NCBI GenBank assembly: GCA_036401395.1
Contig: DASWUZ010000123.1
Span: forward strand, 3,597-67,596
Length of the DNA stretch: 64,000 nucleotides
DNA from: Acidisarcina sp.
GTDB lineage: Bacteria; Acidobacteriota; Terriglobia; Terriglobales; Acidobacteriaceae
Direction: 5' to 3'
The position numbers and the translations under genes are program-made. Shown piece after piece: positions 1 through 17,463 of this stretch. Each line of letters starts with the position of its first letter. Position 1 is the stretch's first letter. The notes beneath the pieces are model-generated. The model searched no databases. It had not been told where the DNA came from and worked only from the letters and a program-made list of their open reading frames with translations.

Positions 1-3000
1 TAGTCGGCTCTACCACGGTCGCCCGCATGCCAGTTGATTTGTTCCCGGACATTAATATCCCGGTGGTCGTGGTGGCGACTTTTTATAACGGCATGCCTCC
101 AGAGCAAATAGAATCGAACATTACAAACCCGTTCGAACGGTTTTTTACCCTCGGAGGTGGGATCGATCATATCGAGTCACGTTCGCTTACGGGCGTCAGC
201 CTCATCCGTATTTATTTCCAGCCAGGCACGAATGCGGACGCGGCCGTCACGACGATTTCTAACCTCGCGCTTGCCCAGTTGCGACGGCTCCCTCCTGGTA
301 CGCTGCCGCCCGTGGTTTTGAAGTTCGACGCTTCCAGCCTTCCTGTGTGCCTCATCACCCTTAAAGGCGAGGGCCTGAACGAAACGCAGCTTCACGATCT
401 GGCTCAGTTCAACGTGCGCAATCAGCTAGCTGGCGTTCCGGGTGCTTCGGTACCTCAACCGTTCGGCGGGAAGTATCGGCAGATTCAAATCTACGTAGAC
501 CCCGTAAAACTCGAGGCCCATCAACTGAGCCCAATGGATGTTGTGCGCTCGGTCAATCAGGCGAATGCCATTCTTCCGGCCGGCGATGTGCGGATCGGGC
601 CAAGAGATTTCAACATTTACACTAACTCGCAATTCCCCACAATGGAGGAGATCGACCGCCTACCGCTAAAGACAGTTGGAAACGGCCAGCTCCTCGTCTC
701 GGATGTCGGGAGCGCGAAGGATGCCGCCGCTATCCAAACAAATATCGTTCGCGTCGATGGACAGCATTCGGTCTACCTGCCGATCTTGAAACAAGGTGGG
801 GGGAGCAATACTATCGCGGTCGTGAATGGTATCCGCACCGCCATTGGCGATCTGCTCGATGTGCCGAAGTCACTCAGGACGAGAGTGGTGTTTGACCAGT
901 CGGTGTTTGTAAAGACGGCCATTTCAAATCTCGGCAGCGAAGGCGGCATCGGGCTGGTTCTGACTGCCCTGATGATCCTTATCTTTCTCGGCAATGTACG
1001 GGCAACGCTGGCCGTGATGCTTTCGATTCCGTTGTCGGCACTTGCCGCTTTCCTCGCGTTGAACCTGTTGGGGGGAACCATCAACTCGATGGTCCTGGGC
1101 GGGCTCGCTCTGGCGTTCTCCCGGCTGATCGATAACTCGGTGGTGGTGCTGGAGAATATTTTCCGGCATCTGGAAATGGGAGAGTCGGCGGAGGAAGCTG
1201 CGGAAAAAGGTGGGCGCGAAGTCGCATTGCCGGTATTAGCCGCCACGTTCACGACCGCTATTGTGTTCTTTCCCGTAGTTTTTCTGTATGGCGTCAGCAG
1301 GTTCCTATTCACCGCATTGGCTCTGTCCGTTGTGTTGTCCCTGTTCGCGTCCTACGTAGTGGCGCTAACGGTGGTCCCTCTGTTTTGCGCTCGGTTTATC
1401 AAGAACGCACACAACGAGGCCGTACATCATAAGGGCAACTCGTGGTTTCAGCGCTTCGTACTGCGGTTCAATCAGAAATACGATCAAACGCTGATGCGCT
1501 ATGACATCGCGGTCGGCAAGGCCCTGCTGCGACCGGTTGCGACGGTGATCGGAGTGTTAGGCGTTTTCCTGTTGAGCCTTGGTCTGTTTCCGTTCATGGG
1601 TCTGTCGTTCTTTCCCCGAACAGATCCTGGGCAATTCGTGATCAACGTGAAGGCTCCGAGCGGCACAAGGCTTGAACTAACCGATAGATACATCGCACGA
1701 GTCGAAGAGGATATTCGCTCGGTAGTTCCCGCAAAAGACCTTGGAATTGTGGTCTCGAACATTGGCATCACGCCGGACTTCTCTGCGATTTACACCACCA
1801 ATTCCGGACAGCACACGGCGTTCGTACAGGTCAGCTTGAAGGAGGGCCATAGCAAGAGCAGCTTCGAGTATATGAACCTTGTCCGCCGGAAATTAAGGGA
1901 CGATCTGCCGGAGATTTCTACTTACTTTCAAACCGGCGGTCTGGTCGACGCTGTAGTCAATCTTGGACTACCGGCGCCCATTGATATTCAAGTGAGTGGA
2001 AACAATCAACAGGAAGCATTTGCAACTGCCACCGCACTCGCGGAGAAGATCAAAAAGCTGAACGGGGTCAGTGATGTGCTGATCCCGCAAGATCTGGATT
2101 ACCCCGGTCTTCGTTTGAATGTGAACCGAGAAATGGCCGGAAGACTTGGCCTTAATTCAAGCGAGATCGTGGACAACGTGATCACCGCGCTCACTTCGAA
2201 TGGCATGATCGCACCTAGCTACTATGTCGACCCAAAGAGCGGCAACAACTATCTGCTCACGGTCCAGTTTCCGGAATCCCAGGTGAAATCTCTCACCGAC
2301 TTTGAGCAGATACCGGTGCGATCGCACGATGGTTCGCAAACTGCCAACCTGGGCGCTGTGACCGACATCAAGCCGATCAATACCCCGACGGAAGTCGATC
2401 ACTATCAACTTCGTAGAGTCATCGACGTGTATGTATCGCCATCCGGGCAGGACTTAGGTGGGCTTGCGAAGCGCGTCGACAGAGTTATCACGGACCAGCC
2501 TATTGCTAGCGATTTGCGGGTTTCTATGCGAGGTTCCGTACAGGGAATGCGGAAGTCGTTTACCAGTTTCAGCATTGGGCTAATTCTCTCGATCATTCTT
2601 GTCTACCTGATCTTGATGGCTCAGTTTGCTTCCTTTGTCGACCCAGTAATTATCCTGCTCGCTATTCCACCCGGCATCACCGGCGTGATCCTCTTTCTGC
2701 TGCTAACTAAGACTACGTTGAACGTGATGTCCCTGATGGGTGTCGTCATGATGACCGGCATCGTGGTTTCCAACTCGATCCTGATTGTCGAGTTCACGAG
2801 GAGCCTCCGCAAAATAGGCATGCCGATTCGGGAGGCAGTCGCGACAGCTTGCCGCGTTCGGCTGCGACCCGTGCTGATGACTTCACTCGCGACGATTCTA
2901 GGAATGATACCCATGGCCCTTGCCCTGGAAGCGGGCAGCGAGCAGTATGCACCGCTGGCGAGAGCGATCATCGGGGGATTGACCGTATCCGTTCTAGTCA

Positions 3001-3092
3001 CGGTGTTCGTGGTGCCTGCGGCTTACCTTTGGGTGCATGGGAAAGAAGAGGATCTGGCGACTCCGGCTCCTCAAGACGGAGCAACGCTATGA
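1..3092 (+). CDS. RND (AcrB/HAE1-family) efflux permease, N-terminus cut by the window edge
   Basis: ORF 27..3092 (1021 aa). The same frame is open back to base 3 (VGSTTVAR precedes the first Met), so the start lies upstream. Multi-TM layout with two large periplasmic loops. AcrB-type segments present: PVDLFPDINIPVV, GLALAFSRLIDNSVVVLENI, VMMTGIVVSNSILIVEF. Followed by a TolC-like gene with an ATGA overlap. Confidence 0.9.
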   Translation, partial: VGSTTVARMPVDLFPDINIPVVVVATFYNGMPPEQIESNITNPFERFFTLGGGIDHIESRSLTGVSLIRIYFQPGTNADAAVTTISNLALAQLRRLPPGTLPPVVLKFDASSLPVCLITLKGEGLNETQLHDLAQFNVRNQLAGVPGASVPQPFGGKYRQIQIYVDPVKLEAHQLSPMDVVRSVNQANAILPAGDVRIGPRDFNIYTNSQFPTMEEIDRLPLKTVGNGQLLVSDVGSAKDAAAIQTNIVRVDGQHSVYLPILKQGGGSNTIAVVNGIRTAIGDLLDVPKSLRTRVVFDQSVFVKTAISNLGSEGGIGLVLTALMILIFLGNVRATLAVMLSIPLSALAAFLALNLLGGTINSMVLGGLALAFSRLIDNSVVVLENIFRHLEMGESAEEAAEKGGREVALPVLAATFTTAIVFFPVVFLYGVSRFLFTALALSVVLSLFASYVVALTVVPLFCARFIKNAHNEAVHHKGNSWFQRFVLRFNQKYDQTLMRYDIAVGKALLRPVATVIGVLGVFLLSLGLFPFMGLSFFPRTDPGQFVINVKAPSGTRLELTDRYIARVEEDIRSVVPAKDLGIVVSNIGITPDFSAIYTTNSGQHTAFVQVSLKEGHSKSSFEYMNLVRRKLRDDLPEISTYFQTGGLVDAVVNLGLPAPIDIQVSGNNQQEAFATATALAEKIKKLNGVSDVLIPQDLDYPGLRLNVNREMAGRLGLNSSEIVDNVITALTSNGMIAPSYYVDPKSGNNYLLTVQFPESQVKSLTDFEQIPVRSHDGSQTANLGAVTDIKPINTPTEVDHYQLRRVIDVYVSPSGQDLGGLAKRVDRVITDQPIASDLRVSMRGSVQGMRKSFTSFSIGLILSIILVYLILMAQFASFVDPVIILLAIPPGITGVILFLLLTKTTLNVMSLMGVVMMTGIVVSNSILIVEFTRSLRKIGMPIREAVATACRVRLRPVLMTSLATILGMIPMALALEAGSEQYAPLARAIIGGLTVSVLVTVFVVPAAYLWVHGKEEDLATPAPQDGATL

Positions 3093-4387
3093 AGAAATCT
3101 CTCATTTGCCTCTCGATCTTCGCGCTCACGTCCTGGGTGGCGCGTGCGCAAACGGTTCAGGCTCCGACCGGTTCGCTCACGGTACAGGAGGCGGAACAAT
3201 TAGCCATTCGAAATAATCCGCGGATTGCCGTTGCCCGTCTTACGGCGCTTGCGGAAGGACAAGTCACCCGCGAGGCGCGCTCCGCGGAACTACCGACGAT
3301 CACAGGAAACCTGACCGCTGTCGATTCCCATGAAGGCAGTCGCATCACCGCGGGTGCTCTGAACAATCCTATTGTCTACCAGCGTGCTGCGGGTGGAGTA
3401 ACCGTAAGTCAACTCATCGCGGATTTCGGTAGGACGCGCAGCCTGGTCGGCAGCGCGGCCCTCCGCGCACAAGCTCAAGCCAGCCAAGAGGCGGCTACTA
3501 CGGCCGACGTAGTAATCGCAGTGGATGAAGCGTTCTATCGGGCATTGGGGACTCAGGCGGTCCTCAAGGTTGCCAGCGATACGGTCTCTGCCCGCCAGAC
3601 CACAACAGATCAGGTAAATGCCTTGACCGGCGCGAAGCTCAAGTCGACGCTCGATCTGAGCTTCGCCAGTGTGAACCTGGCCCAGGCGAAACTGTTGTTG
3701 CTTGATGCTCAGAACGAGAACCAGGAGTCGATGGCGGCAATGAACGCGCTGCTGGGAAGCGAGCGGCCAACCAACTACACGCTCGTGGACGACACCGGGA
3801 ATGCACCTGCGCTCGCGCCGCTTGATGCTGAACCTCTGGTGACCCAGGCATTCAACAGCAGGCCCGACCTGACTGCGCTCAATGAGGAATTCGAAGCGGC
3901 CAGGAAATTTTCCTCCGCAGAGCATGATCTTCGCCGTCCGACAATCGCTGCGCTTGGTACGGCGGGCTCTACCCCTGTGAGAGCAGATCAGATCGCATCG
4001 TCCTGGTACGGGGCTGCCGGCGTAAACGTCAGCGTTCCCATCTTCAACGGCTTCCTCTTTTCTGCGCGAGCCCGTGAAGCAGACCTGAGAGCTGCAGCCG
4101 CGAAAAAGCGAGTCGAAGAGTTGCGCCAAACGATAGCCCGCGATGTAAGGACCACGGTACTCCAGGCGCAGTCAAATTTTCAGCGCATCGCGGTGACGCA
4201 ACAACTGCTCGCCCAAGCGAACACGGCATTTGATCTGGCGCAGACTCGTTACCGGATCGGCCTCTCGTCAATCGTCGAAATCAGTCAGGCAGAGCTAGCT
4301 CAAACTGAGGCACAGATAGAGTACGCAACGGCAAGATATTCGTATCAAGGATCACTAGCCGCAATTCGTTACCAGACAGGCCAGTGA
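3089..4387 (+). CDS. TolC-family outer membrane efflux protein
   Basis: ORF 2849..4387 trimmed to ATG 3089, which gives the signal peptide MKKSLICLSIFALTSWVARAQ. This ATG overlaps the RND stop (ATGA at 3089-3092). Two-repeat, Ala/Gln/Leu-rich coiled layout typical of outer membrane efflux proteins. Confidence 0.85.
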   Translation: MKKSLICLSIFALTSWVARAQTVQAPTGSLTVQEAEQLAIRNNPRIAVARLTALAEGQVTREARSAELPTITGNLTAVDSHEGSRITAGALNNPIVYQRAAGGVTVSQLIADFGRTRSLVGSAALRAQAQASQEAATTADVVIAVDEAFYRALGTQAVLKVASDTVSARQTTTDQVNALTGAKLKSTLDLSFASVNLAQAKLLLLDAQNENQESMAAMNALLGSERPTNYTLVDDTGNAPALAPLDAEPLVTQAFNSRPDLTALNEEFEAARKFSSAEHDLRRPTIAALGTAGSTPVRADQIASSWYGAAGVNVSVPIFNGFLFSARAREADLRAAAAKKRVEELRQTIARDVRTTVLQAQSNFQRIAVTQQLLAQANTAFDLAQTRYRIGLSSIVEISQAELAQTEAQIEYATARYSYQGSLAAIRYQTGQ

Positions 4388-4541: not shown

Positions 4542-5399
4542 CATATAGACTCAGGTCAATCGTCGCCAATTGCCTACTCAGCTCCGACGGGTCTTGACCC
4601 TGACAGAGCGGGCAACATACCCACGGATGGCAAGAATTCCTATCGCTACGACGGCGAGGGGAGAATTTGTGCGGTTGCGTATGGCTCCAGTCCCGTGAAT
4701 TACGAGCAGTACGTCTACAACGCTCTTGGAGTGCGAGTAGCAAAAGCAAGCATCGCCGGAGCAGGGTTTCCAGCGGCAGGAGCTGTCTTCGCAGCTCCAG
4801 GAGCCGCCTCCGGGTTCTCGTTAACGAACCAATACCTGCTCGATCAAATTGGCGATCAGGTGACTGAACTGAATGGCTCTGGCACCTGGACGCACTCGAA
4901 CGTATGTGCTGGCGCTCACCTCCAGGCTACTTACGACACCAATGGATTGCACTTCCAATTGGCCCATCCTCTGGGCACGCGGCGCATCGAAACTGCCGCA
5001 GCGGGGACTGTAGATGGAACATATCAAAGCCTTCCCTTCGGAGACAATCTGGTCACTTCAGGCTACGACGCAACCGAACACCATTTCACCGGCAAAGAGC
5101 ACGATGCGGAAACTGGGAATGAGTACTTTGAAGCACGATATTACGGCGCGGCGATTGGGCGTTGGATGTCCCCGGACTGGAGTGCCAAGATTGAGCCCGT
5201 GCCGTACTCAAAGCTGGAAGACCCCCAGTCGTTAAATCTGTATGCATACGCAAGAAATAACCCCCTGACAATAATTGACGCGGACGGCCACGATGCCGCA
5301 CAGGATTCAAACGTACTGAGCGACTACGTATGGGGTAGCGGGGTCGGGAAGCGGCGAACTTGCAAGTGCTTAAAGCGTTTAATCTGCCGGAAGGCGTGA
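4542..5399 (+). pseudogene. Orphan RHS/YD-repeat core end plus C-terminal tip, fragment 1 (no N-terminal region)
   Basis: Frame is open from 4542 (stop at 4539-4541); the first start-like codon is GTG 4695 (track ORF 4695..5399). YD repeat DGKNSYRYDGEGRI. RHS core-end motifs HHFTGKEHDAETGNEYFEARYYGAAIGRWMSPD and PQSLNLYAYARNNPLTIIDADGH. No RBS and no N-terminal domain. The tail after DADGH looks out of frame (see findings). Confidence 0.75.
4707..5291 (+). repeat. Paralogous rhs core segment, copy A (partner 9230..9814)
   Basis: By-eye alignment with 9230..9814. The first 77 nt are identical (CAGTACGTCTACAACGCTCTTGGAGTGCG...CAGGAGC). Substitutions then accumulate toward the DxDGH boundary. 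Same length (195 codons) with no indels. Confidence 0.85.
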
Positions 5400-5488
5400 A
5401 CCGGAAGCCCGTTCTTTTCGGCGATGAATCGGTAGTCTTTCCGATCACTGTATAGACGAAGGTTTGCTATCAAACACAGTTCACTCGA

Positions 5489-5944
5489 ATGGATGTGAAG
5501 ACGGGCAAGGATGCGCCGTGGACGACGCTGGAATGCACACGGTACAACCTACTTGGCGACGGGCACATAATTTACACGAGCATGAAGGGCGACAGCCCGT
5601 TGGAGATTATCGGGGAAGGCAACGTCTCTTCGGCATCCTACAATCCGCCCAAAGGTGCTTATATCGACCGGGGTATCTTGGACGGCAGCAGCCCCGTAGT
5701 ATCCCCTCAGTCTCTGCGTGTAGTCGAGGAGCTGATAGAGGCGAAAGGCAGGCATCCACCGCTCGACATGTCTGGCAAGTTCGTTGGCCGGGACATCGTG
5801 CTTCTGGACATGCATACCGGCACGGCTCTGCTGACAGTGAAGGTGCCCTTGAGTACGCAGGTATATTCCTACGCGCTGTCTCGGGATGGAAAGCGGCTAG
5901 CCGTTTTGCTTGACTCGCAGTTGACTGTCTATCAGGTTCCATAG
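5489..5944 (+). CDS. Hypothetical protein with a beta-propeller-blade-like C-terminus; candidate partner or immunity gene of rhs tip 1
   Basis: ORF 151 aa, same strand, about 90 nt after the fragment 1 stop. The C-terminal part (DIVLLDMHTGTALLTVKV...YALSRDGKRLAVLLDSQLTVY) resembles one or two propeller blades. No family recognised with confidence. Confidence 0.4.
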   Translation: MDVKTGKDAPWTTLECTRYNLLGDGHIIYTSMKGDSPLEIIGEGNVSSASYNPPKGAYIDRGILDGSSPVVSPQSLRVVEELIEAKGRHPPLDMSGKFVGRDIVLLDMHTGTALLTVKVPLSTQVYSYALSRDGKRLAVLLDSQLTVYQVP

Positions 5945-6091
5945 CGCATACTCTGAACCTCCAGCAAGCCGCTCTCCGGGGCGGTTTGTTGGCGTCTATG
6001 GCATCCATCCGGCGTCTTGCTGGATATGGGCGGAAGAGTACGCTGCTCCGCATCGGCTGAATAGGAACGCGTCACCCAGAATGGGAGCTAC

Positions 6092-6459
6092 GGAGTAACT
6101 AAAAGTTCCTCTCGGGAAAGTTGCTGAAACAGGCTGCTAATAGAAAAAGGTGTAGGGGGTACCTTGTAAGTGAGCGCGCGTTGCTGTGGGGAACTCTATG
6201 ACTGCAGACCCTTAGCCGGCCTTGCTGCCCAATGTTGAGCAACGCGCATGCAGTGTGCGACCCGCCTCCGAACTCCCTTCCAAGAACTCATCTAGGGGGT
6301 GCTCTATGAAGCCACGGCTGCGTACCAAGAGAGTGAGCACGAAGGTTATTGAAAGGGAGGGGAGCCCGCAGGAGAGCGACAGACACAGGTCGATGCACGT
6401 AGTCGAAATTGAAGCGGCGAGAGCCTCCAAAATGTAGCGGCGTCACCAGAATTCAATAA
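6092..6459 (+). repeat. Repeated RHH-module, degenerate copy 1 (partner 10723..11208)
   Basis: Shares blocks with copy 2: GGAGTAACT(A/G)AAAGTT, GTGAGCGC(G/A)CGTTGCTG, CCCTTAG, ATGTTGAGCAACGC, ATGAAGCC.CGGCT.CGTAC.AAG, GTAGTCGAAATTGA.GCGGCGAGAGC.TCCAA.ATGTAGCGG and CCAGAATTCAATAA. The RHH-coding core of copy 2 is replaced here by about 50 unrelated nt. Track ORF 6222..6437 is the remnant. Confidence 0.7.
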
Positions 6460-6536
6460 GTATCAACAGGGGTATTTACTTCAAAACGCTTGTAAACGAC
6501 TCATTCGACACGGATAGAACCGATGATCTGTTTCTG

Positions 6537-8119
6537 GACGGTGCCGATGGCGGTCGCACCGCCAATTACGGGTATGATTCGATGGGACGGTTGATCTCGG
6601 CTAAGACCAACGGCTCCTCTGGTTACCCGCAATGGGGACTATCTGAGAGCTACGACCGGTATGGAAACCGCCTGAACCAGGCGGTCACGGCGGGAAGTGG
6701 GCCGTCGAGCAATCTAAGTTTTGGGTCGAACAATCAGCCCACCGGCTACACGTTCGACTCGAGCGGCAACATGACCGTGGAGCCGCTTTCCCCGCCCAAC
6801 AACATGACCTATGACGGTGAGAACCGGATGACGGCCTTCAGCGGAATTGGGGGAGCGGCGAGCTACACCTATGACGGAAATGGATTGCGGGTAGTCAAAT
6901 CCGTGCAAAGTGGGACGACAACTGTCAGTGTCTTCGCAGGCTCCTCGGTGATTGCCGAATACGACAACGGCGAGGCCCCGACGTCTCCTTCACGGGAGTA
7001 CATCTACAACCCTGCGGGCGGCGCGACGACCGGGCTGCTGGCCATGATCAGCGGGGGCATAACGACCTACTATCATCAGGACAGTCTATCTGTCCGGCTG
7101 ACGACGAATGGCAGCGGATCCATCTCAACTCAGGACGGAACTTTCCCGTTCGGCGAGTCGTGGTATCAATCCGGCACTTCGAACAAATGGATATTCACCA
7201 GCTATCAACGAGACTCGGAAAGCGGCCTGGTCTACTCCCTTGCTCGCTACTACAACAGCCGCACGGGAACGTTCTGCTCGGCGGATCCTCTGGCCGGTTC
7301 GCCCGATGATCCGCAGTCGTGGAACAGGTATCCGTATGGACGGAATGACCCCATCGACATCACCGATCCCAGCGGAAAGTCTTGGTGGAGTTCGCTTCTC
7401 ATCGGCGCTGGAGTAGCTGCCGCAATCTATTTCGCACCTGATATAGAAACATTCCTCGGTGAACACTTGGGACTGGCGCTTGGTGATTCTGCCCAGTCTG
7501 TATTAGCAACGCCCGCAGCCAATCCGGGACACGCCATAGGGCTCCTATTAAGGCCTGCCGTGCAGGCAGCTGGCGTAGCTGGTACGGAGGGCGCTGCTGC
7601 TGCTGGATCTGGCCTCGGCGCTGCCATCGCCGGTGGCGCAATTGCTGCCGGGGCCGCGCAGGCTGTCGACCAGCCGAAGACGCAAACGCCTAGAGGTGGC
7701 TGTGCACAGACTGTTCCCGGCACCGCCTCGAAGTACTGCGGTCCTCTACAGGACGGATTAGACGCCGCCAAAAAAGCACTTCAACGAAAGAAGTGCAACA
7801 AATTCTATGGTGGACAAGGGGCAGAGACTCTGAGCGGCACTACGTATCGATTCTTGCATCTACCCGATCCGACAACCGGTGCCGCAACCATCGACCCGAG
7901 CCACGTCTTCGTAAACTCAGATGGGCCATACATGAACTACACGCCCACGCAAGGTAAAGCAGGCCCATCGGTCGATTTTGGACACAAGGTCAATTCCGTG
8001 GCTTCCTCCTTCTGCATGAGCTTGGACACCAGCTCAGTCCGGTTACGGGTTTCGGCCCGGATACAGGTAGCCCCTTGAACCAAAAGCAGTCCGGTTGGGT
8101 GTTGTCTCACTGCTTCTAA
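6537..8119 (+). pseudogene. Orphan RHS/YD-repeat core end plus C-terminal tip, fragment 2 (tail frameshifted; track ORF 6582..8078)
   Basis: Frame is open from 6438; RHS-like sequence starts near 6537 (DGADGGRTANYGYDSMGRLIS). YD repeats YDRYGNRL, YDGENRMT, YTYDGNGLRVVK. Core end YYNSRTGTFCSADPLAGSPDDPQSWNRYPYGRNDPIDITDPSG. No N-terminal region. The -1 frame from 7958 carries HELGH and ends at 8119. Confidence 0.75.
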
Positions 8120-8133
8120 GAAAGAGAGGCCCG

Positions 8134-8520
8134 ATGCGATCAAAAGTATTGAAGTTCTGGCTTGTGGCTGTAACTTTTGCGTTGTGCTGTTCTGTGGCGA
8201 CTGCCACCTCTCCAGGAAGAATTAAGGGCCAAGTCTTGGACTCAGAGGGGGCCGTCATAGAGGGTGCACATCTGCTGCTCCATTCAGACCCGTCAGGGCA
8301 GAATAGGCCAGCCGCTCGTTCTGACGTCATGCGCGAGACCGACGCGGCGGGACTATTCGATGTCCAACTAGAGCCTGGATTCTATGATGTGTGCGTCATG
8401 GCGACTGCGTTTACACCGGATTGCCACAAGATTTTTATCACAAATGGAAAAACCATCCCATATGACGCCCGACTGAAAGCGGACCCCCTTGTGATTCAGC
8501 ATCTGGGCGACACGTTTTAG
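8134..8520 (+). CDS. Secreted carboxypeptidase-regulatory-like (beta-sandwich) domain protein; candidate immunity gene for rhs tip 2
   Basis: ORF 8095..8520 trimmed to ATG 8134, which gives the signal peptide MRSKVLKFWLVAVTFALCCSVATA. Purine-rich GAGAGG lies 4 nt upstream. GRIKGQVLDSEGAVIEGAHLLL is typical of the CarboxypepD_reg fold. Confidence 0.6.
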   Translation: MRSKVLKFWLVAVTFALCCSVATATSPGRIKGQVLDSEGAVIEGAHLLLHSDPSGQNRPAARSDVMRETDAAGLFDVQLEPGFYDVCVMATAFTPDCHKIFITNGKTIPYDARLKADPLVIQHLGDTF

Positions 8521-9094
8521 GTCGGTGACGGCCGCGTTCTTCCGGGGCAGTCTCGCTGTCTGTCCCGACCCTGAAAATCCGACCCTGAGTCAGTATCCCA
8601 AGGGCGATGCTGCCTCCGCATCGGGAGAATAGGGATATAGTACCCAGAATGAGGTGCGTGTGCCTCATCTTCATGTCGCGACCCCGCTTGGCGTCGATCT
8701 AGTTATCGCAATCAAGCTCACTCAATCCGTCGCGACCGTCGGCCCTGACGGGCAGAGTGACTTCCAGAAGGCGATGGCGGCACCCGCCTTCTAGCAGAAG
8801 TAGCACGAAAAGCTCATGGCACGGACGATGCGGCCAATCACCTTGATCCGAACGGGACATTTCATGGCGCAAATTGCGCGTTCGGGATCATCGGCAATGA
8901 CAAATTCGATGCGGCGTTCAAGAGTGCTCTCAATACCTCTGGGTGAGGCAGATGGCTCTACAGGTGCTCATAAATGGCTTGACTCCACCGACGCACGAGT
9001 AGGGTTTAGTACCTCACTCATCATGACAACGACAGACTCCACCCGCCAAGTCATACCTGAATCCAGTCGGTGCCGAATAAGCGATAGGGGCTGA

Positions 9095-10261
9095 TTGAGA
9101 GACCCATGTGACCTTATTGGTGGAATCATAAATGGCATTCACGCCGCGCGCCTTCGAGCAGTCGACTCCCGGCAGAATTGGGCCTTTTACTATGACACTT
9201 TGAATCGCCTGGTAGTCAATTACTACACCCAGTACGTCTACAACGCTCTTGGAGTGCGAGTAGCAAAAGCAAGCATCGCCGGAGCAGGGTTTCCAGCGGC
9301 AGGAGCGGTCTGCGCAGCTCCAGGAGTGGCGTCAGGGTTCATGCTAACGAACCAATATCTGCTCGATCAAAGCGGCGATCAGGTGACTGAACTGAATGGC
9401 TCTGGCACGTGGCTGCACTCGAACGTCTGGGCCGGCGCCCACCTAGACGCAACTTACGACATCAATGGCTTGCACTTCCACTTGGCAGACCCGCTCGGCA
9501 CCCGGCGCATTGAAACTGCCGCGGCCGGGACTATAGACGGAACGTACCAAAGTCTTCCCTTCGGAGACAACCTGGTCGCTTCCGGCTACGACGCGACCGA
9601 GCACCATTTTACCGGCAAAGAAAGAGACTTCGAATCCGGTAACGACTACTTCGGTGCGAGATACTACGCGTCGAGCATTGGCCGCTGGATGAGCCCAGAC
9701 TGGGCGGATAAACCAGAGGCTGTGCCGTACTCACAACTCGACAATCCGCAGTCTCTGAATCTATACGGATACATGGGCAACAATCCTCTTTCTAAAGCCG
9801 ACAAGGATGGTCACTGCTGGCCGGTTTGCACGGCAATTCTTGGTGCCGGGTTAGGTGCGCTCGCTGAAGCTGGTACTGAATATCTGAAGGGAGAGACGCT
9901 CAGCCCATACAAGATCGGAGCGGCGGCGTTAGCCGGACGCATCACGGGAGCTATCGCGGGCCCGATTGGAGACGCGGCAGAGTTGGGGGTTGCGGCTAAA
10001 GTTGGGGGACAATTAGCGGCCAATCTCATTGGCGGAGCCGTCGAGCGGAAGCTTAACGGACAAAAGGTTCTTGATCCGAAGGCTGCCATTGCCGACGCCG
10101 CTGGTGCAGCCGCTACCGGCAAGGTAGCGAAGGGACTCGAAAAGCACGCTTGCGTCCGAGGTTGTGAAAAAGGTCTCTGGAGCTGCCATCGAAGTCACCG
10201 GCGGTGTAGCGAAGAACCTGCTGACAGCCAAGCCGGAGGCGCACAAACCAGAAGTTCCTAA
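9095..10261 (+). pseudogene. Orphan RHS/YD-repeat core end plus C-terminal tip, fragment 3 (no N-terminal region)
   Basis: In-frame TGA at 9092-9094; the first codon is TTG. FYYDTLNRLV YD repeat, then a core segment paralogous to fragment 1 (HHFTGKERDFESGNDYFGARYYASSIGRWMSPD, PQSLNLYGYMGNNPLSKADKDGH). Gly/Ala-rich hydrophobic tip. The last roughly 40 codons look out of frame. Confidence 0.75.
9230..9814 (+). repeat. Paralogous rhs core segment, copy B (partner 4707..5291)
   Basis: See copy A. Identity is highest at the 5' end and decays toward the tip boundary. Confidence 0.85.
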
Positions 10262-11847: not shown

Positions 11848-13608
11848 CTATTGTGCATGCCGTTCATAACCACGGGAGCCATTACCTTCAGTTAGCGTGA
11901 TGTAGGAATCTACATTTGCCGGGGGCTGAAAGGATTCTGTTTCGCCGTCAGGCCAGCGCACCTCGATGCTCTTGATCGCTGTGCCAGCTCCCAGTCCGAA
12001 GTGAAGGCGAAGATCGCTGGACGAATTATAGCTTGAACCGCTGCGGACTTCATCGACCCAGTTGCGCTTCGGTCCATGAATAGTCACCCGCGCACCGATA
12101 GCGTCACGATTTGACTTAGTTCCGATAAGTTGCAGACCTATCCAATGATTGGGGTTTTTAGCAACGTTCACAAGCAGCATGGGCACGTCGCTGAGGTTGT
12201 TAACGACAGCCTCAAGCCGGCCGTCATTGAACAGATCGGCGATGGCTAGACCCCGACCCGATTGGGGCGTAACTAGTCCGGGCCCTGAGGACTTGCTTAC
12301 ATCTTTGAACTTGCCATTGCCAAGGTTGTAATAAAGGAACCGCGGTTCGCGGTAGGCAGCTCCCAGCTTTTCCGAATCGACCTCTGGATACACGTGACCA
12401 TTCACCACAAGCAGGTCGGGCCAGCCATCATTGTCCACGTCGGCAAACATCGTGCCCCAACCCAAAGCGTCGCTATTGATGGCAAGCCCAGCCGCAAACG
12501 TAACATCTGTATAGGTGCCGTCGCCATTGTTGTGGTAGAGCGTTGACGTGTCATCAGAGAAATTTGTCTTGAATAGATCGAGTCTTCCGTCCCCATCATA
12601 GTCTGCAGCCGTGGAACCCATGCCAGCCTGCTCGCGGCCATCCTCATTGAATGCCGCTCCGGCATCGGCGCCAACATCGGTAAAGGTACCATCGTGGTTA
12701 TTGCGATATAGTATCGCGGGCGTAGAGTCGCACGCGACGTATATGTCGGGCCATCCGTCGTCGTTATAATCCAACGTTGTGACCGAGAAGCAATAGTGGC
12801 CTGTAGTTTTCTCAATGCCGCTTGTCTTACTCACGTCTTCGAACTTGCCATTGCCCAGGTTATGAAAGAGAAGGTTGGGTGCGCTATCAAGTCCACGCGG
12901 GCCGCACATAACAGCTACACCCTTCCAGTTGCAGGATGCGGCTTGCCCTGGGGCCGGCGTCTTTGCCAGATCGAAGTGGACGTAGTTCGCAACCACTAAA
13001 TCAAGCTTTCCATCGCGGTCGTAGTCGATGAATGCGCAGCCGGTACCCCACTCTTTGCCGCTGCCCGCCACACCGGCCTGCTCCGCCACTTCCTTGAAGG
13101 TACCGTCCCGCTGATTATGGTATAGCCGGTTCTTTCCATAGCCGGTGACATAAAGATCGTCGTATCCGTCATTGTCGTAGTCACCAACACACGCACCCTG
13201 GCCCCACGCGGTAGCAGCCAGGCCGGCCTTTTTAGTTACATCGGTGAAGGTGCCGTCATGGTTGTTATGGAATAGGTGACTTGTCGGCTTATCTGAAGGC
13301 CCAGGCATCTTCTGGTTAGGCAGAGTAGAGCCATTCACGATAAAAATGTCGGGCCAACCATCCCGGTCATAGTCGATGATCGCCACTCCAGAACCGGTGG
13401 ACTCTATGATGTAGCGTTTTGACTCCAGGCCGCCGTTCACATTGCGGACTGCTATCCCCGCCTGGCCGGCCATGTCGACGAACCAGGCCGGACCTGGATG
13501 ATCAGAGGTTGGCGGGTAGGGCGATTGGCTGACCCCGTCGGGAGAGATGACAGATATTAGTAACACCGCAGTTATAACGCGGCCGCAGCTTACCAGGATC
13601 TTAGCCAC
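11848..13608 (-). CDS. CRTAC1-family protein (FG-GAP/VCBS repeats plus ASPIC/UnbV C-terminal domain), secreted
   Basis: ORF 586 aa with a GTG start. Repeated DYDxDGxxD / GxGxAxADYDGDG motifs. C-terminal IGARVTIHG...VRSGSSYNSSSDLRLHFGLG. N-terminal hydrophobic signal. Confidence 0.85.
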   Translation of the reverse strand: MAKILVSCGRVITAVLLISVISPDGVSQSPYPPTSDHPGPAWFVDMAGQAGIAVRNVNGGLESKRYIIESTGSGVAIIDYDRDGWPDIFIVNGSTLPNQKMPGPSDKPTSHLFHNNHDGTFTDVTKKAGLAATAWGQGACVGDYDNDGYDDLYVTGYGKNRLYHNQRDGTFKEVAEQAGVAGSGKEWGTGCAFIDYDRDGKLDLVVANYVHFDLAKTPAPGQAASCNWKGVAVMCGPRGLDSAPNLLFHNLGNGKFEDVSKTSGIEKTTGHYCFSVTTLDYNDDGWPDIYVACDSTPAILYRNNHDGTFTDVGADAGAAFNEDGREQAGMGSTAADYDGDGRLDLFKTNFSDDTSTLYHNNGDGTYTDVTFAAGLAINSDALGWGTMFADVDNDGWPDLLVVNGHVYPEVDSEKLGAAYREPRFLYYNLGNGKFKDVSKSSGPGLVTPQSGRGLAIADLFNDGRLEAVVNNLSDVPMLLVNVAKNPNHWIGLQLIGTKSNRDAIGARVTIHGPKRNWVDEVRSGSSYNSSSDLRLHFGLGAGTAIKSIEVRWPDGETESFQPPANVDSYITLTEGNGSRGYERHAQ

Positions 13609-15638
13609 TATGACTTTGTCCCCATTTGTGCCACGCCAGAGCCTGGGCCCATCGCTATAGCCTCAAGAATCTTTCCACCTTCCTGGATAACATAAAGATG
13701 GTTTGCAGCAAGTCTGGTAAGCCGGTCCACCGCGCCAGAGGGCCATCTGATTTCGACAGCATCCGCCTTATCTGCCCTGTCGAGACCAAAGTGGATTCTA
13801 AAATCACTCTGAGAGTAATAGCTGCCGCCGCTCCTTACTTCCTCAATTTGAATGAACGGCTTGGCGTCCGGTGCAGGCTGCGTGATAATGCTGATCCGGG
13901 CACCTATGCCTGAGCGGTTCGACTTAGTACCGACCGTCCTGATCTTGATCCAGTTGCGTACCCGGTTACCCGGAAGCGTGCAGTCGTTCCTCAGCAACTG
14001 AGGCAGGCTGTTCACGCAGTTCACGATGACATCAACGTCGCCGTCGTTGTCGAAGTCGCCGAAGGCGCAGCCCCTCGCCGGCGCGGGAGCCGTAATCCCG
14101 GGCCCGCCCTGGTTAGTGACCTCCTCGAACTGGCCGTTACGCAAGTTGCGATACAGATACTTATGCTGCCTATATGGCGCATCAACTTGAGTACCATCAA
14201 CCTCTGGATAAACATGGCCATTGCAAATCAGCAGGTCAAGCCATCCATCGTTGTCCATGTCAAAGAAGCCCACACCCCAGCCGAGCAAACGTGTATTGAC
14301 GCCGAGACCGGCAAGGTAGGTCCTGTCTTCAAAGGCGCCTGAGCCCATGTTTTGATACAGGGAGTCTGTATCGCCGGCAAAATTGGTCTTAGCTATATCG
14401 AAGAGCCCATCTCGATTAAAGTCGCCTATGGATACACCCATCCCGGCCTGCGGCTTGCCGTCGGGGGAGTAGGCTATTCCTGACTCGATCGCTACATCCT
14501 TGAAGGTACCGTCCTTCTGGTTCTTGTAGAAGGTCGCAGCCGTGGAATCATTTGCAACATAGATATCAGGCCATCCATTCCCGTCCATATCGCACACGGC
14601 GACCGAGAGACCATAAGTCCCGACTGTGTTCCAGATGCCGCTTTTCTCGGAGACATCGGTGAATGTTCCGTCGCCATTGTTGTGGTAGAGGATATTTTTC
14701 CCACCTTGCAGGCCCGGTGGCCCGCAGGCTACCTGAATTCCTTTATAGACACAGTTAGCGGCCTCCGGCAATGGGGCGGTCTTTATGTCGAAATCAATGT
14801 AGTTAGCGACAAACAAGTCAAGGTGGCCGTCACGATCGTAGTCGAGAAATGCGCACCCGGAGTTCCACCGGATCTTCGACTGCACCATGCCGGCTTTCTT
14901 CGTTACATCAGTAAAAGTGCCATTACCATTATTGCGATACAAGACATTCTGACCGTAGTAACTTACAAATAAGTCGTCCCAGCCGTCATTGTTGTAGTCG
15001 CCTACACAGCAACCCTGGCCCCATCCACCGTGTATCAGCCCAGCCTTTACAGTGACGTCGGTGAAGGTACCGTCGCGGTTGTTCTTAAACAAATGGTTGG
15101 TGGGCGCCTTCGCTGCTGGAAAGCCTTCCAACCGAGTACCGTTGACCAGGAAAATATCGAGCCAGTTATCGTGATCATAGTCGTAGAATGCTACTCCGCA
15201 ACCTGTGGTCTCAAGCAAGTACCTGTTCTTGTGTTCGCCGCCGTAAGTGGTTTTCGCGTTCAGCCCGGACTGTAGCGCTACATCGACGAACGAGACGCCC
15301 AGCGGAGTTCCTGCGACTGTAGAGGGCAGGCCTGGAGGAGGCGGCTGCGGCTTTGCATCATATGCCGGACGTTGCGCCACCATACCGGTTGCCTGGGCCT
15401 GGGCCCCGGCCAGAGCGAGTACGTCTTCCAGAGTAAGCACCAGCGCTGTGGCGGAAAGTGACCGAAGAAATGTCCTGCGTGACGAACTCAAACACACTCC
15501 TGGAACCTTGTAGCGGCCCGTGAAAGCCCTCTGCCCGTAAATGATCGCCTCGCTGGCTAGCGAAGCCGCTAGCCAGACAAGGCCTGCCGTTTTCGTTAGT
15601 CTACGACTGTGCGCCGCTACTGGGCTATGGCGCAGCAA
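13608..15638 (-). CDS. CRTAC1-family protein (FG-GAP/VCBS repeats plus ASPIC/UnbV domain) with a twin-arginine signal
   Basis: ORF 676 aa. Tat-like SSRRTFLRSLSATALVL. Same repeat architecture as its neighbour. C-terminal IGARISI...VRSGGSYYSQSDFRIHFGL. The true start is probably downstream of 15638. Its stop overlaps the next gene's start by 1 nt. Confidence 0.85.
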   Translation of the reverse strand: MLRHSPVAAHSRRLTKTAGLVWLAASLASEAIIYGQRAFTGRYKVPGVCLSSSRRTFLRSLSATALVLTLEDVLALAGAQAQATGMVAQRPAYDAKPQPPPPGLPSTVAGTPLGVSFVDVALQSGLNAKTTYGGEHKNRYLLETTGCGVAFYDYDHDNWLDIFLVNGTRLEGFPAAKAPTNHLFKNNRDGTFTDVTVKAGLIHGGWGQGCCVGDYNNDGWDDLFVSYYGQNVLYRNNGNGTFTDVTKKAGMVQSKIRWNSGCAFLDYDRDGHLDLFVANYIDFDIKTAPLPEAANCVYKGIQVACGPPGLQGGKNILYHNNGDGTFTDVSEKSGIWNTVGTYGLSVAVCDMDGNGWPDIYVANDSTAATFYKNQKDGTFKDVAIESGIAYSPDGKPQAGMGVSIGDFNRDGLFDIAKTNFAGDTDSLYQNMGSGAFEDRTYLAGLGVNTRLLGWGVGFFDMDNDGWLDLLICNGHVYPEVDGTQVDAPYRQHKYLYRNLRNGQFEEVTNQGGPGITAPAPARGCAFGDFDNDGDVDVIVNCVNSLPQLLRNDCTLPGNRVRNWIKIRTVGTKSNRSGIGARISIITQPAPDAKPFIQIEEVRSGGSYYSQSDFRIHFGLDRADKADAVEIRWPSGAVDRLTRLAANHLYVIQEGGKILEAIAMGPGSGVAQMGTKS

Positions 15639-15708
15639 GGTTTGGGCAGTCGGAAGATGACACGATCAAAGCCGGACGCGTCGTCGGTCTCGCGCCTCAG
15701 ATGTTTGG

Positions 15709-17463
15709 CTAAGGTCCAGGTTGTTTGACGGATTGCTCCGCCCGCTCCCGATCGAGCCTGTCTGCCTTCTGGCGTTCGAGCGCCGCCTCCGCCGCATTGC
15801 CCTGGCGGCCAAGGGCATCGGCCAGCATGCGGTGAGGTGTGGCATAGCCCGGATCAGCGGCCACAGCGAGCCTCAGTTGAGTCACAGCGTCCTCGACCTT
15901 ACCGATCTTGAGCAACGCGGTCCCAGTGCCCAGTGCGAAGTCGGAGCGCTGCCTGCTCACGGCTATGCGACTCAGCTCGGCCGCAATCTTTCGCTCGGCA
16001 GCGGCTCCAGCCTGGTCGCCCTGCTGAGCAAGTATCGCCGCAAGAGTAATGTGTGATCCCGGTTGATTTGGCAACAGTTCTATAGCATGGCGCAACGCGG
16101 GAACTGCTTTGCCGGGCACATTCATCTGCCGGTAAGTACTGCCGAGCACCGACCAGGCGTCGCCATTCTCAGGACGCATCCTGACCGCGGCCTCCATCTG
16201 TTCGGCAGCCTTGGCAAACTCGCCGGTCTGCATGTAGAGCACTCCGAGGGTATAAGGCGGATCGGGCAGGCTAGGGTTAGCTGCTTCTGCCAAAAGAAGT
16301 TCGGCGACCGCTTCGGGCAATCTGTCTTTTAGTTTCAGCGCCAGACCCAGATCGTAGTGCAGCGCAGCCGCCTGCGCGCCGCCCTGGTTGGGAAGCGCAA
16401 GCCCCGCCCTGAACTCGGCAATCGCATGATCGAGGTCGCTCTGCTGTAAATACGCCACACCCAGGTCTTCCAGCAGCACGGGGTTAGCCGCATCGAGCTT
16501 CAATGCCCGTTCATAAATCGGCACCGCTTGCCTGGCTTGACCATCCTGAACCAGCTCAAGTGCATAGTTGGTCAGCACCTGGGCATCCCCGGGCCGAGCG
16601 GAGGCCGCTACGGCAAACAGCGGAACAGCTTCTTTTGTCTCACCCGCATTCTGTAGCGCCAGCGCCAGCGAGTAGGTTGCGTCGACCGACGAGGGCGCGA
16701 TCCGGTGAGCGTGCCGCAGTGTCTCTAACGCATCTTCATCAAGCCGCTGAGCAATCTGCGCCCGCCCCAACTGCAGCAAAATATTCAAATCGTTGGGCGC
16801 AAGTTTCCCGGCTGCCTGCAACTCGTCCACTGCCTCCGGAAGTCTCTGCTCCACGAGGTCGAGTGAGCCGAGGTGAAAATGGGCGGAGGAAGAGTTCGGA
16901 TCCAGGGTCAGAGCTTTTTCCAACTCAGCGCGCGCCTCATCATATCTTTGCTGCTGAGCAAGTACTGCCCCCAGCGCATCATGGAGTGGGGCATTTTCGG
17001 GGTTTGCGGTGGCCGCCTTTTGCAACTTCAGGGTCGCGTCCTGCACTTTGCCGGTACCCACAAGGCTGGTCGCGTAGGCGAGCGTCGACTCGGCGCTCAG
17101 CGTCACAGCAGGTTGAAGCGAGCGAAACAGCGTAACGGAGTCGGCAAATCGGCGCTGCGAGCAGTAAGCATTTGCAAGGTTCAACGTGGTGGTCTGGTCC
17201 CTGTCGTCGAGACGATGCGCCTTCTCCAGCTCGGGGACGGCGGCAGCTAATTTACCCTCGGCCAACAGTACGGCACCCAGAGCTCCATGGCCAGCTGCGG
17301 AACCCGGCATGAGCCGAACGACTTTTGCGAATTCGGACTCAGCGCGAGGCAGGTCGTTGCTCTTCATAGCTGCGAATCCTGCATGGAAGGCAACATCGCC
17401 TGAGTGAATCTGCTGCGATGTCTGGAGCAGGAACACAAACGTAAGAAGAGCACTCATGCACAT
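15709..17463 (-). CDS. Tetratricopeptide (TPR) repeat protein, secreted
   Basis: ORF 584 aa with an N-terminal hydrophobic signal. More than 12 consecutive 34-residue A/L/Y/G-patterned repeats (e.g. AHFHLGSLDLVEQRLPEAVDELQAA). Lies upstream in the same orientation as the two CRTAC1 genes. Confidence 0.8.
   Translation of the reverse strand: MCMSALLTFVFLLQTSQQIHSGDVAFHAGFAAMKSNDLPRAESEFAKVVRLMPGSAAGHGALGAVLLAEGKLAAAVPELEKAHRLDDRDQTTTLNLANAYCSQRRFADSVTLFRSLQPAVTLSAESTLAYATSLVGTGKVQDATLKLQKAATANPENAPLHDALGAVLAQQQRYDEARAELEKALTLDPNSSSAHFHLGSLDLVEQRLPEAVDELQAAGKLAPNDLNILLQLGRAQIAQRLDEDALETLRHAHRIAPSSVDATYSLALALQNAGETKEAVPLFAVAASARPGDAQVLTNYALELVQDGQARQAVPIYERALKLDAANPVLLEDLGVAYLQQSDLDHAIAEFRAGLALPNQGGAQAAALHYDLGLALKLKDRLPEAVAELLLAEAANPSLPDPPYTLGVLYMQTGEFAKAAEQMEAAVRMRPENGDAWSVLGSTYRQMNVPGKAVPALRHAIELLPNQPGSHITLAAILAQQGDQAGAAAERKIAAELSRIAVSRQRSDFALGTGTALLKIGKVEDAVTQLRLAVAADPGYATPHRMLADALGRQGNAAEAALERQKADRLDRERAEQSVKQPGP

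Follow-up and report, generated by a model that had tools for sequence, protein, structure and literature searches.

Small zincin-like toxins are known from the C-termini of Rhs proteins, among them Tox-MPTase1-5 and HopH1/NleD (M91), and the Tox-MPTases, which are distantly related to Wss1, are listed with no immunity family ("-" in the table; Zhang et al. 2012, PMC3482391). In Pseudomonas aeruginosa, the C-terminal metallopeptidase of VgrG2b is an HExxH zinc effector that is toxic in the periplasm and has PA0261 as its immunity protein (Wood et al. 2019, PMC6899460). Arrays of orphan rhs C-terminal (rhs-CT) / immunity cassettes have been described downstream of rhs genes (PMC4436062, PMC3482391). 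Here we analysed a stretch of 64,000 nucleotides (nt) of Acidisarcina sp. (assembly GCA_036401395.1, contig DASWUZ010000123.1, positions 3,597 to 67,596), called the window below and used for all coordinates, which has three tandem Rhs end pieces. The second of these, tip 2 (open reading frame (ORF) 6582..8078), is the subject of this study. It is likely, and we hold this with good though not full confidence, that tip 2 represents an orphaned cassette from the C-terminal end of an rhs gene, in which a zincin-like toxin domain has been inactivated by one lost T while a probable immunity gene has been retained.

The domain of tip 2 resembles the Tox-MPTase and M91 toxins in being an alpha+beta domain of ~130 amino acids (aa) with the HExxH motif, placed behind RHS repeats and core as the very last part of the protein, and in belonging to a polymorphic family that is also found as standalone cassettes. 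As with the Tox-MPTases, its weak structural neighbours include minimal zincins of the SprT/Wss1 type. Unlike in the Tox-MPTase and M91 toxins, the family signature consists of HExxH, an invariant Asp ~8-11 residues further on and a conserved Cys pair, and unlike the Tox-MPTases the family is consistently linked to a secreted partner. By analogy with VgrG2b and PA0261, the exported partner suggests that the same periplasmic effector-immunity logic may apply here. The two differ in that VgrG2b is fused to a VgrG spike and the tip 2 family to Rhs, and in that the tip 2 domain has no sequence match or significant fold match in PDB and is followed by a CarboxypepD_reg beta-sandwich protein. The locus as a whole is like the orphan rhs-CT arrays, with three start-less Rhs ends in tandem, each with a small ORF, core-derived repeats that might support recombination, damaged toxin parts and one intact partner gene in the window. 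Unlike those arrays, it stands straight after an efflux operon, and no long or full-length rhs ORF, and hence no parent rhs gene, was found within the 64-kb window.

Tip 2 is an orphan cassette and not a complete toxin gene. The remnant of the Rhs gene (6530..7376, forward strand) consists of the last YD repeats and the RHS repeat-associated core (~7146..7376), which ends ...NRYPYGRNDPIDITDPSGK and in translation ...DPIDITDPSGK. TIGR03696 (Rhs_assc_core) matched the ORF at aa 189-265 with 62.1 bits against a cut-off of 32.5, and the Pfam RHS_repeat model stayed below threshold. The ATG at 6582 codes for a Met within a YD repeat (GYDSMGRL), so that tip 2 has no credible start; the frame-0 translation 5' of it still reads GGRTANYGYDSMGRL and then stops, Rhs homology starts at ~6530, and further upstream there are stops in all frames. 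Only ~280 aa of Rhs sequence are left, and the full YD-repeat shell and the N-terminal delivery region are missing. Reduced to its final YD repeats plus the core, and with no start, tip 2 is therefore an orphan fragment and not a deliverable toxin gene, and it would represent a displaced rhs end piece. A scan of 6000-9200 for promoters gave no sigma-70-like sites, which says nothing on expression. Between the Rhs core and the toxin domain lies a Gly/Ala-rich hydrophobic linker of ~100 aa (7377..7700, forward strand; translation SWWSSLLIGAGVAAAIYFA...AAGAAQAVDQPKTQTPRGG). The linker (SWWSSLLIGAGVAAAIYFA...GSGLGAAIAGGAIAAGAAQAV) is also present in an intact orphan tip at another locus (L003) and absent from more distant members, and it may be a membrane-interacting or translocation segment.

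The toxin domain is divided over two reading frames of the forward strand. Its N-terminal two thirds are encoded in frame 0 (7701..7967; CAQTVPGT...YRFLHL...GAATIDPSHVFVNSDGPYMNYTPTQGKAGP, from the homologue alignments) and include the family-conserved Cys codon at 7794-7796, and its C-terminal third is encoded in the -1 frame (7970..8119; GRFWTQGQFRGFLLLHELGHQLSPVTGFGPDTGSPLNQKQSGWVLSHCF and stop). As annotated, the ORF 6582..8078 gives a product of 498 aa with a Cys/Arg/Ser-rich tail (7968..8078; SVDFGHKVNSVASSFCMSLDTSSVRLRVSARIQVAP and stop) terminating ...GPSVDFGHKVNSVASSFCMSLDTSSVRLRVSARIQVAP, and this out-of-frame tail has a counterpart in no homologue. The -1 frame has a TAA at 7955-7957, stays open from there (7958) to the TAA at 8117-8119 and reads SRPIGRFWTQGQFRGFLLLHELGHQLSPVTGFGPDTGSPLNQKQSGWVLSHCF (...FWTQGQFRGFLLLHELGHQL...SHCF and stop). 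It holds the HELGH codons (8015-8029), the invariant Asp codon (8060-8062) and the invariant C-terminal Cys codon (8111-8113). On re-translation, the first-pass annotation of this DNA was right in all its coordinates, for the ORF, the TAA, the -1 frame, the HELGH motif, the stop and the ATG of the partner gene.

Comparison with homologues indicated that the two frames belong together. A query joining them matched 13 proteins (E 5.7e-70 to 5e-22, 45-77% identity, 51-97% coverage), and 11 of the 13 cross the junction continuously, with the family consensus GQxGPFGRYWTQGQFRGFILLHELGHQLSPITGFxPDAGSPLNQxQSGxVLSxCF. Judged from these alignments, the -1 frame is the true protein continuation, far beyond chance, and the tail 7968..8078 is not real protein sequence, so that the C-terminus of the annotated 498-aa protein is false. 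Of the 182 positions of the family profile, the annotated product (P0032) matches no further than position 132. Thus the earlier proposal of an HExxH-containing, zincin-like toxin domain broken by a single-base indel was borne out by homologues that are intact across the junction. Intact tips, the search for which had been suggested, were found in other genomes reading across the junction in the repaired frame, and the opposite case, homologues reading through in the frame of the annotated ORF, did not occur.

The position of the lesion, in contrast, differs from the one first given, which was the run of four T (T4) at 7976-7979 with a join of GPSVDF to WTQ. In the DNA alignment with two homologous loci there is exactly one 1-nt gap, where the window has CCA-TCGGTCGAT against CCATTCGG or CCGTTCGG. 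The window reads CCA TC GGT at this point and the homologues CC[AGT] TT[CT] GG[NNN], and the stretch encoding GPFG[RL][YF]W takes 21 nt in 14/14 close-subfamily loci and 20 nt in the window; therefore one T of a Phe codon is missing at 7967/7968 (forward strand), and the correct join is KAGPFGRFWTQ. With this T restored (...KAGPFGRFWTQ...), every family-conserved residue is present, and the protein aligns over 292 aa without a gap with the orphan tip at L003, which is intact (66% identity, E 7e-126). Against the family profile the one-T repair scored 188.8 bits, the T4 join 182.0 and the product as annotated 109.6. The T4 tract is itself a Phe codon in the window, at a place where most relatives have Tyr (TAT or TAC). 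A repair within this tract was rejected, as the alignment gap lies three codons upstream and the join swaps the subfamily-conserved FGR for SVD. The product as encoded lacks the catalytic helix with HELGH as well as the invariant Asp and the Cys near the C-terminus and is therefore no active enzyme, and the loss of the one T at 7967/7968 would have inactivated the tip 2 domain.

A profile search of the full library with the toxin domain, at a threshold of E <= 1e-3, returned a family of at least 288 clusters, 141 of them at <= 1e-10. Where a member is complete, its domain almost always reaches to within 0-9 residues of the C-terminus. The HExxH motif is present in 150/161 matched stretches; most exceptions are truncated or frame-broken, and in two of them Q or R replaces the first His. 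RHS repeats were detected in 21 of 46 long members, and one long member carries SpvB, TcdB_toxin_midN and FG-GAP. At three loci (L010, L017 and L028), Rhs reading frames of >1,100 aa, open to the edge of the locus, end in the toxin domain. Among its intact relatives, the domain forms the C-terminal payload of long Rhs proteins. An alignment of 72 sequences has E139, H142, D153 and C170 invariant and H138 and C64 at 99%. Relatives were found by genome scan in metagenome-assembled genomes (MAGs) of Bryobacteraceae, Solibacteraceae and Terriglobus. The toxin-partner DNA of two further loci (L006 and L007) is near-identical although the MAGs are labelled Hyphomicrobiaceae and Solibacteraceae, and a third (L004) is labelled Bacteroidetes, which suggests binning errors or recent transfer. 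At L002 (865-6914), a 1580-aa Rhs gene has an HExxH-like C-terminus of its own (…LIHEGIHLFG…) and is followed by a 152-aa ORF, behind which stand a core-less 171-aa copy of the tip-2-type toxin domain and its partner; by its arrangement this copy is an orphan cassette directly behind a parent rhs gene.

The first-pass annotation had also spoken of a textbook metallopeptidase motif. The HExxH motif is indeed there, but the strength of that wording was not supported by the family and fold searches. Pfam and NCBIfam models, run on the repaired peptide and 118 members (46 long, 72 short), gave no family for the toxin domain. The best Pfam hit was a sub-threshold one to Reprolysin_3, of the metzincin type, in 4/72 members (best E 0.032), and the extended metzincin motif HExxHxxGxxH/D is absent, with HELGHQLSPVTGFGPD having Ser for Gly at position 8 and Thr at position 11. 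The Pfam toxin peptidase families (Tox-MPTase2-5, Peptidase_M91 and others) did not match even at E <= 5, a Tox-MPTase1 model not being included, and two profiles searched against the sequences in PDB yielded a single match at the level of chance (Rv0130, E 0.044) and then none. From these searches the toxin domain lies outside every family with a testable model and is best described as uncharacterised and of the same kind as the small zincin-like Rhs toxins.

An AlphaFold2 model from 12 sequences was poor (predicted local distance difference test (pLDDT) 57.6) and was replaced by a run with 72 sequences, which reached a pLDDT of 89.7 and a predicted template modelling score (pTM) of 0.80. The model has helices at 42-78, strands at 80-84, 93-97 and 100-104, and then the long HExxH helix at 128-143 (pLDDT above 95). 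Beyond it come a loop that holds the invariant Asp and a last, C-terminal helix with the invariant Cys at its end. Minimal zincins have their elements in the order predicted here, the beta-sheet and a backing helix standing N-terminal to the active-site helix, and D153, 11 residues past the second His, is a candidate third metal ligand. Foldseek searches against PDB and BFVD gave nothing significant. The top matches in PDB were Pra1, proabylysin (4jiu) and SPRTN (6mdw), all weak (E 1-2, template modelling (TM) score 0.29-0.44), and weak recurrent matches in BFVD were to viral proteins labelled SprT-like, IrrE-like and 'metallopeptidase' (E >= 0.01). The zincin reading of the domain is thus well motivated, and not proven.

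The partner gene is intact (8134..8520, forward strand) and encodes 128 aa with a Sec-type signal peptide and one CarboxypepD_reg beta-sandwich domain (PF13620, aa 30-114, E 4.4e-8; 33.8 bits, above the gathering score of 32.3), as well as a conserved Cys pair. Its ATG at 8134 lies 14 nt past the stop of the -1 frame and is preceded by a GAGAGG ribosome-binding motif, and the product is 56-69% identical to those of genes directly 3' of the toxin at L001 and L002. Partners were surveyed at the 38 loci where the downstream ORF was callable. The CarboxypepD_reg type was found at 12 of these, all with close-subfamily toxins, one of them (L009) being the window's own DNA. A second partner family, at 18/38 loci with toxins of distant subfamilies (L015, L017, L018, L020, L021, L024-L026, L028-L030, L032, L034, L036, L037, L040, L043 and L044), consists of proteins of roughly 145-230 aa, most of them 200-227, that bear a signal peptide, share a conserved ...YC.GD.D.. 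motif and have no Pfam match. A third type was seen at two loci (L031, L041), the partner at L045 has TonB_C, and the one at L035 has CarboxypepD_reg and TonB_C. A signal-peptide-like N-terminus is present in 34/38 partners, and the other four look like spurious ORFs. The earlier argument from the signal peptide of the partner to action outside the cytoplasm therefore holds for the whole family. As the partner family changes with the toxin subtype while export stays constant, the pattern is that of toxin-immunity pairs with a toxin acting outside the cytoplasm. The 8134..8520 product is on these comparisons a probable periplasmic immunity protein, and the conserved Cys pair of the toxin would fit an oxidising compartment. 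It is most likely that the intact secreted beta-sandwich protein still gives immunity against the same toxin from neighbours. The exported partner also points to the periplasm of the target cell as the place where the domain would act, as a hydrolase dependent on zinc and probably as a peptidase.

Of the other explanations, the one that survives best is that the domain is not a peptidase toxin and that its HExxH-Asp metal site serves a non-proteolytic hydrolase or scavenging of the kind seen in the zincophore Pra1, with the neighbouring gene encoding a partner and not an immunity protein. The best, though weak, fold match in PDB is Pra1, a non-catalytic zincin-like protein, and no known peptidase family model matches significantly. 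We nevertheless regard this explanation as unlikely, as the catalytic Glu of HExxH is invariant in the 72 sequences, the domain follows the Rhs core in many proteins and closes the chain, where toxin payloads have their place (PMC3482391), and the downstream gene changes family along with the toxin subfamily, as in toxin-immunity pairs. A bolder proposal, which we put forward tentatively and consider nearly as probable as its opposite, is that the domain founds a new family of Rhs-delivered, disulfide-stabilised mini-zincins (HExxH-x10-D) that would attack a new target in the periplasm and for which there would be several secreted immunity families, unrelated to one another, namely the CarboxypepD_reg beta-sandwich, the unannotated protein of ~200 aa and TonB_C-containing proteins. 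If this were true, both structure and substrate would be new, as the fold has no significant match in PDB, and the copy in the window would be only a decayed example.

A sequencing or consensus error would mean that the true sequence is CCATTCGG and that the toxin domain of the orphan tip is intact in the organism. Single-base indels are the commonest assembly error, and the 3' segment keeps every family-conserved residue, as would be expected of a truly intact gene. We consider such an error improbable, slightly more so than the non-peptidase reading, because an independently built contig from the Logan assembly of SRR11271806 (L009, 4404 nt) is 100% identical to the window at 4856..9259, deletion included. 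Hence the deletion is no artefact of a single assembler. The site is also a TT dinucleotide and no homopolymer run, and comparable splits occur elsewhere in other assemblies, at other positions. A scan of metagenome contigs for an intact or deleted allele of the exact lineage gave 0 matches.

That the frameshift is a switch or a recoding site, in which a ribosomal -1 slip (U UUU G at 7976-7979, or CCA to CCC at 7964-7967) or a change of DNA tract length would yield a regulated or low-level active toxin, is highly improbable, even though a -1 shift anywhere from 7958 to about 7980 leads into the open frame to 8119 and the product of a slip in T4, scoring close to the true repair, might fold. 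There is no X XXY YYZ heptamer at 7958-7985, the RNA 3' of the lesion folds no better than shuffles (z = -0.48), so that no stimulatory structure was detected, and the lesion has no simple-sequence repeat or long homopolymer. The nearest run, T4, does not have the length that transcriptional slippage or phase variation needs and is lacking in most close homologues, several of which have GATATTGG or GATACTGG in its place and one (L013) GGTTTTGG. No homologue is frameshifted at the lesion site of tip 2, all 14 close loci being in frame, and tip 2 lacks a credible start and most of the Rhs shell needed for delivery. The marks of a programmed -1 ribosomal frameshift and those of a phase-variable contingency locus are thus both missing, and of the first description of tip 2 as disabled, or switchable, the former stands and the latter does not. 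Other copies are split at other positions (L008, L044 and the proteins P0012, P0045 and P0113), and at L008 (5956-6430) and L044 (1966-2350) the domain runs over two overlapping frames that change at profile positions ~97 and ~88-97, respectively. Such copies are as expected if silent cassettes decay at random, or if the assemblies contain an error here and there.

The one-base frameshift of tip 2 looks like ordinary pseudogenisation and not a genetic switch, with the partner most likely kept as an immunity gene. Several points weigh against the inactivated orphan cassette as we have described it. The assignment of the domain to the zincins is built on the motif, the predicted topology and fold matches that are not significant, and no sequence match in Pfam, NCBIfam or PDB stands beside them; we likewise infer that the domain binds metal, acts as a peptidase, is toxic and has its target in the periplasm, and that the partner confers immunity. 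The segment behind the frameshift is still ~89% identical to the closest homologue (counted by eye from the alignment), and the lesion is therefore recent, so that decay rests on one lesion and the orphan context. The two assemblies come from the same run and could have a consensus error in common, to which we give the small likelihood stated above. No secretion-system genes were seen near the array and no delivery machinery lies in the window, and the absence of the parent rhs gene counts in the same direction.

The array itself directly follows a resistance-nodulation-division (RND) efflux pump (27..3092) and an outer-membrane factor (about 3089..4387). Its three Rhs end pieces (4695..5399, 6582..8078 and 9095..10261) each have the TIGR03696 core above cut-off and a small ORF behind them. 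Tip 1 (4695-5399) has only ~40 aa past the end of its Rhs core (…DADGH DAAQDSNVLSDYVWGSGVGKRRTCKCLKRLICRKA and stop) and is followed by a 151-aa ORF without a family match (5489-5944); its toxin domain looks truncated or degraded. The tail of tip 3 (10100-10261, in the ORF 9095..10261) is Cys/Arg/Ser-rich (HACVRGCEKGLWSCHRSHRRCSEE...) and another frame reads plausibly (KSTLASEVVKKVSGAAIEVTGGVAKNLLTAKPEAHKPEVPKDKRPGSN and stop), and from its sequence tip 3 may carry a frameshift of its own. A direct repeat of 300 nt with 88% identity lies in the Rhs parts of tip 1 (4707-5006) and tip 3 (9230-9529), and the ends of the Logan contig (4856 and 9259) fall inside these repeats, which are a likely substrate for recombination between cassettes. 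On the minus strand beside the array (11848-17463) there are an adjacent pair of FG-GAP / ASPIC-UnbV repeat proteins and one large TPR protein.

The frameshift at this locus has in itself little significance and is the ordinary decay of a silent toxin cassette. Orphan cassettes of the family are often frameshifted, and annotation pipelines turn them into chimeric proteins. The useful by-product is the family, a widespread Rhs payload of soil bacteria, apparently mostly Acidobacteriota, with an invariant HExxH...D site, a confident predicted fold, no solved relative, no database model and partners that are nearly always exported. It is thus a defined candidate for a new effector acting in the periplasm, with ready-made immunity pairs.

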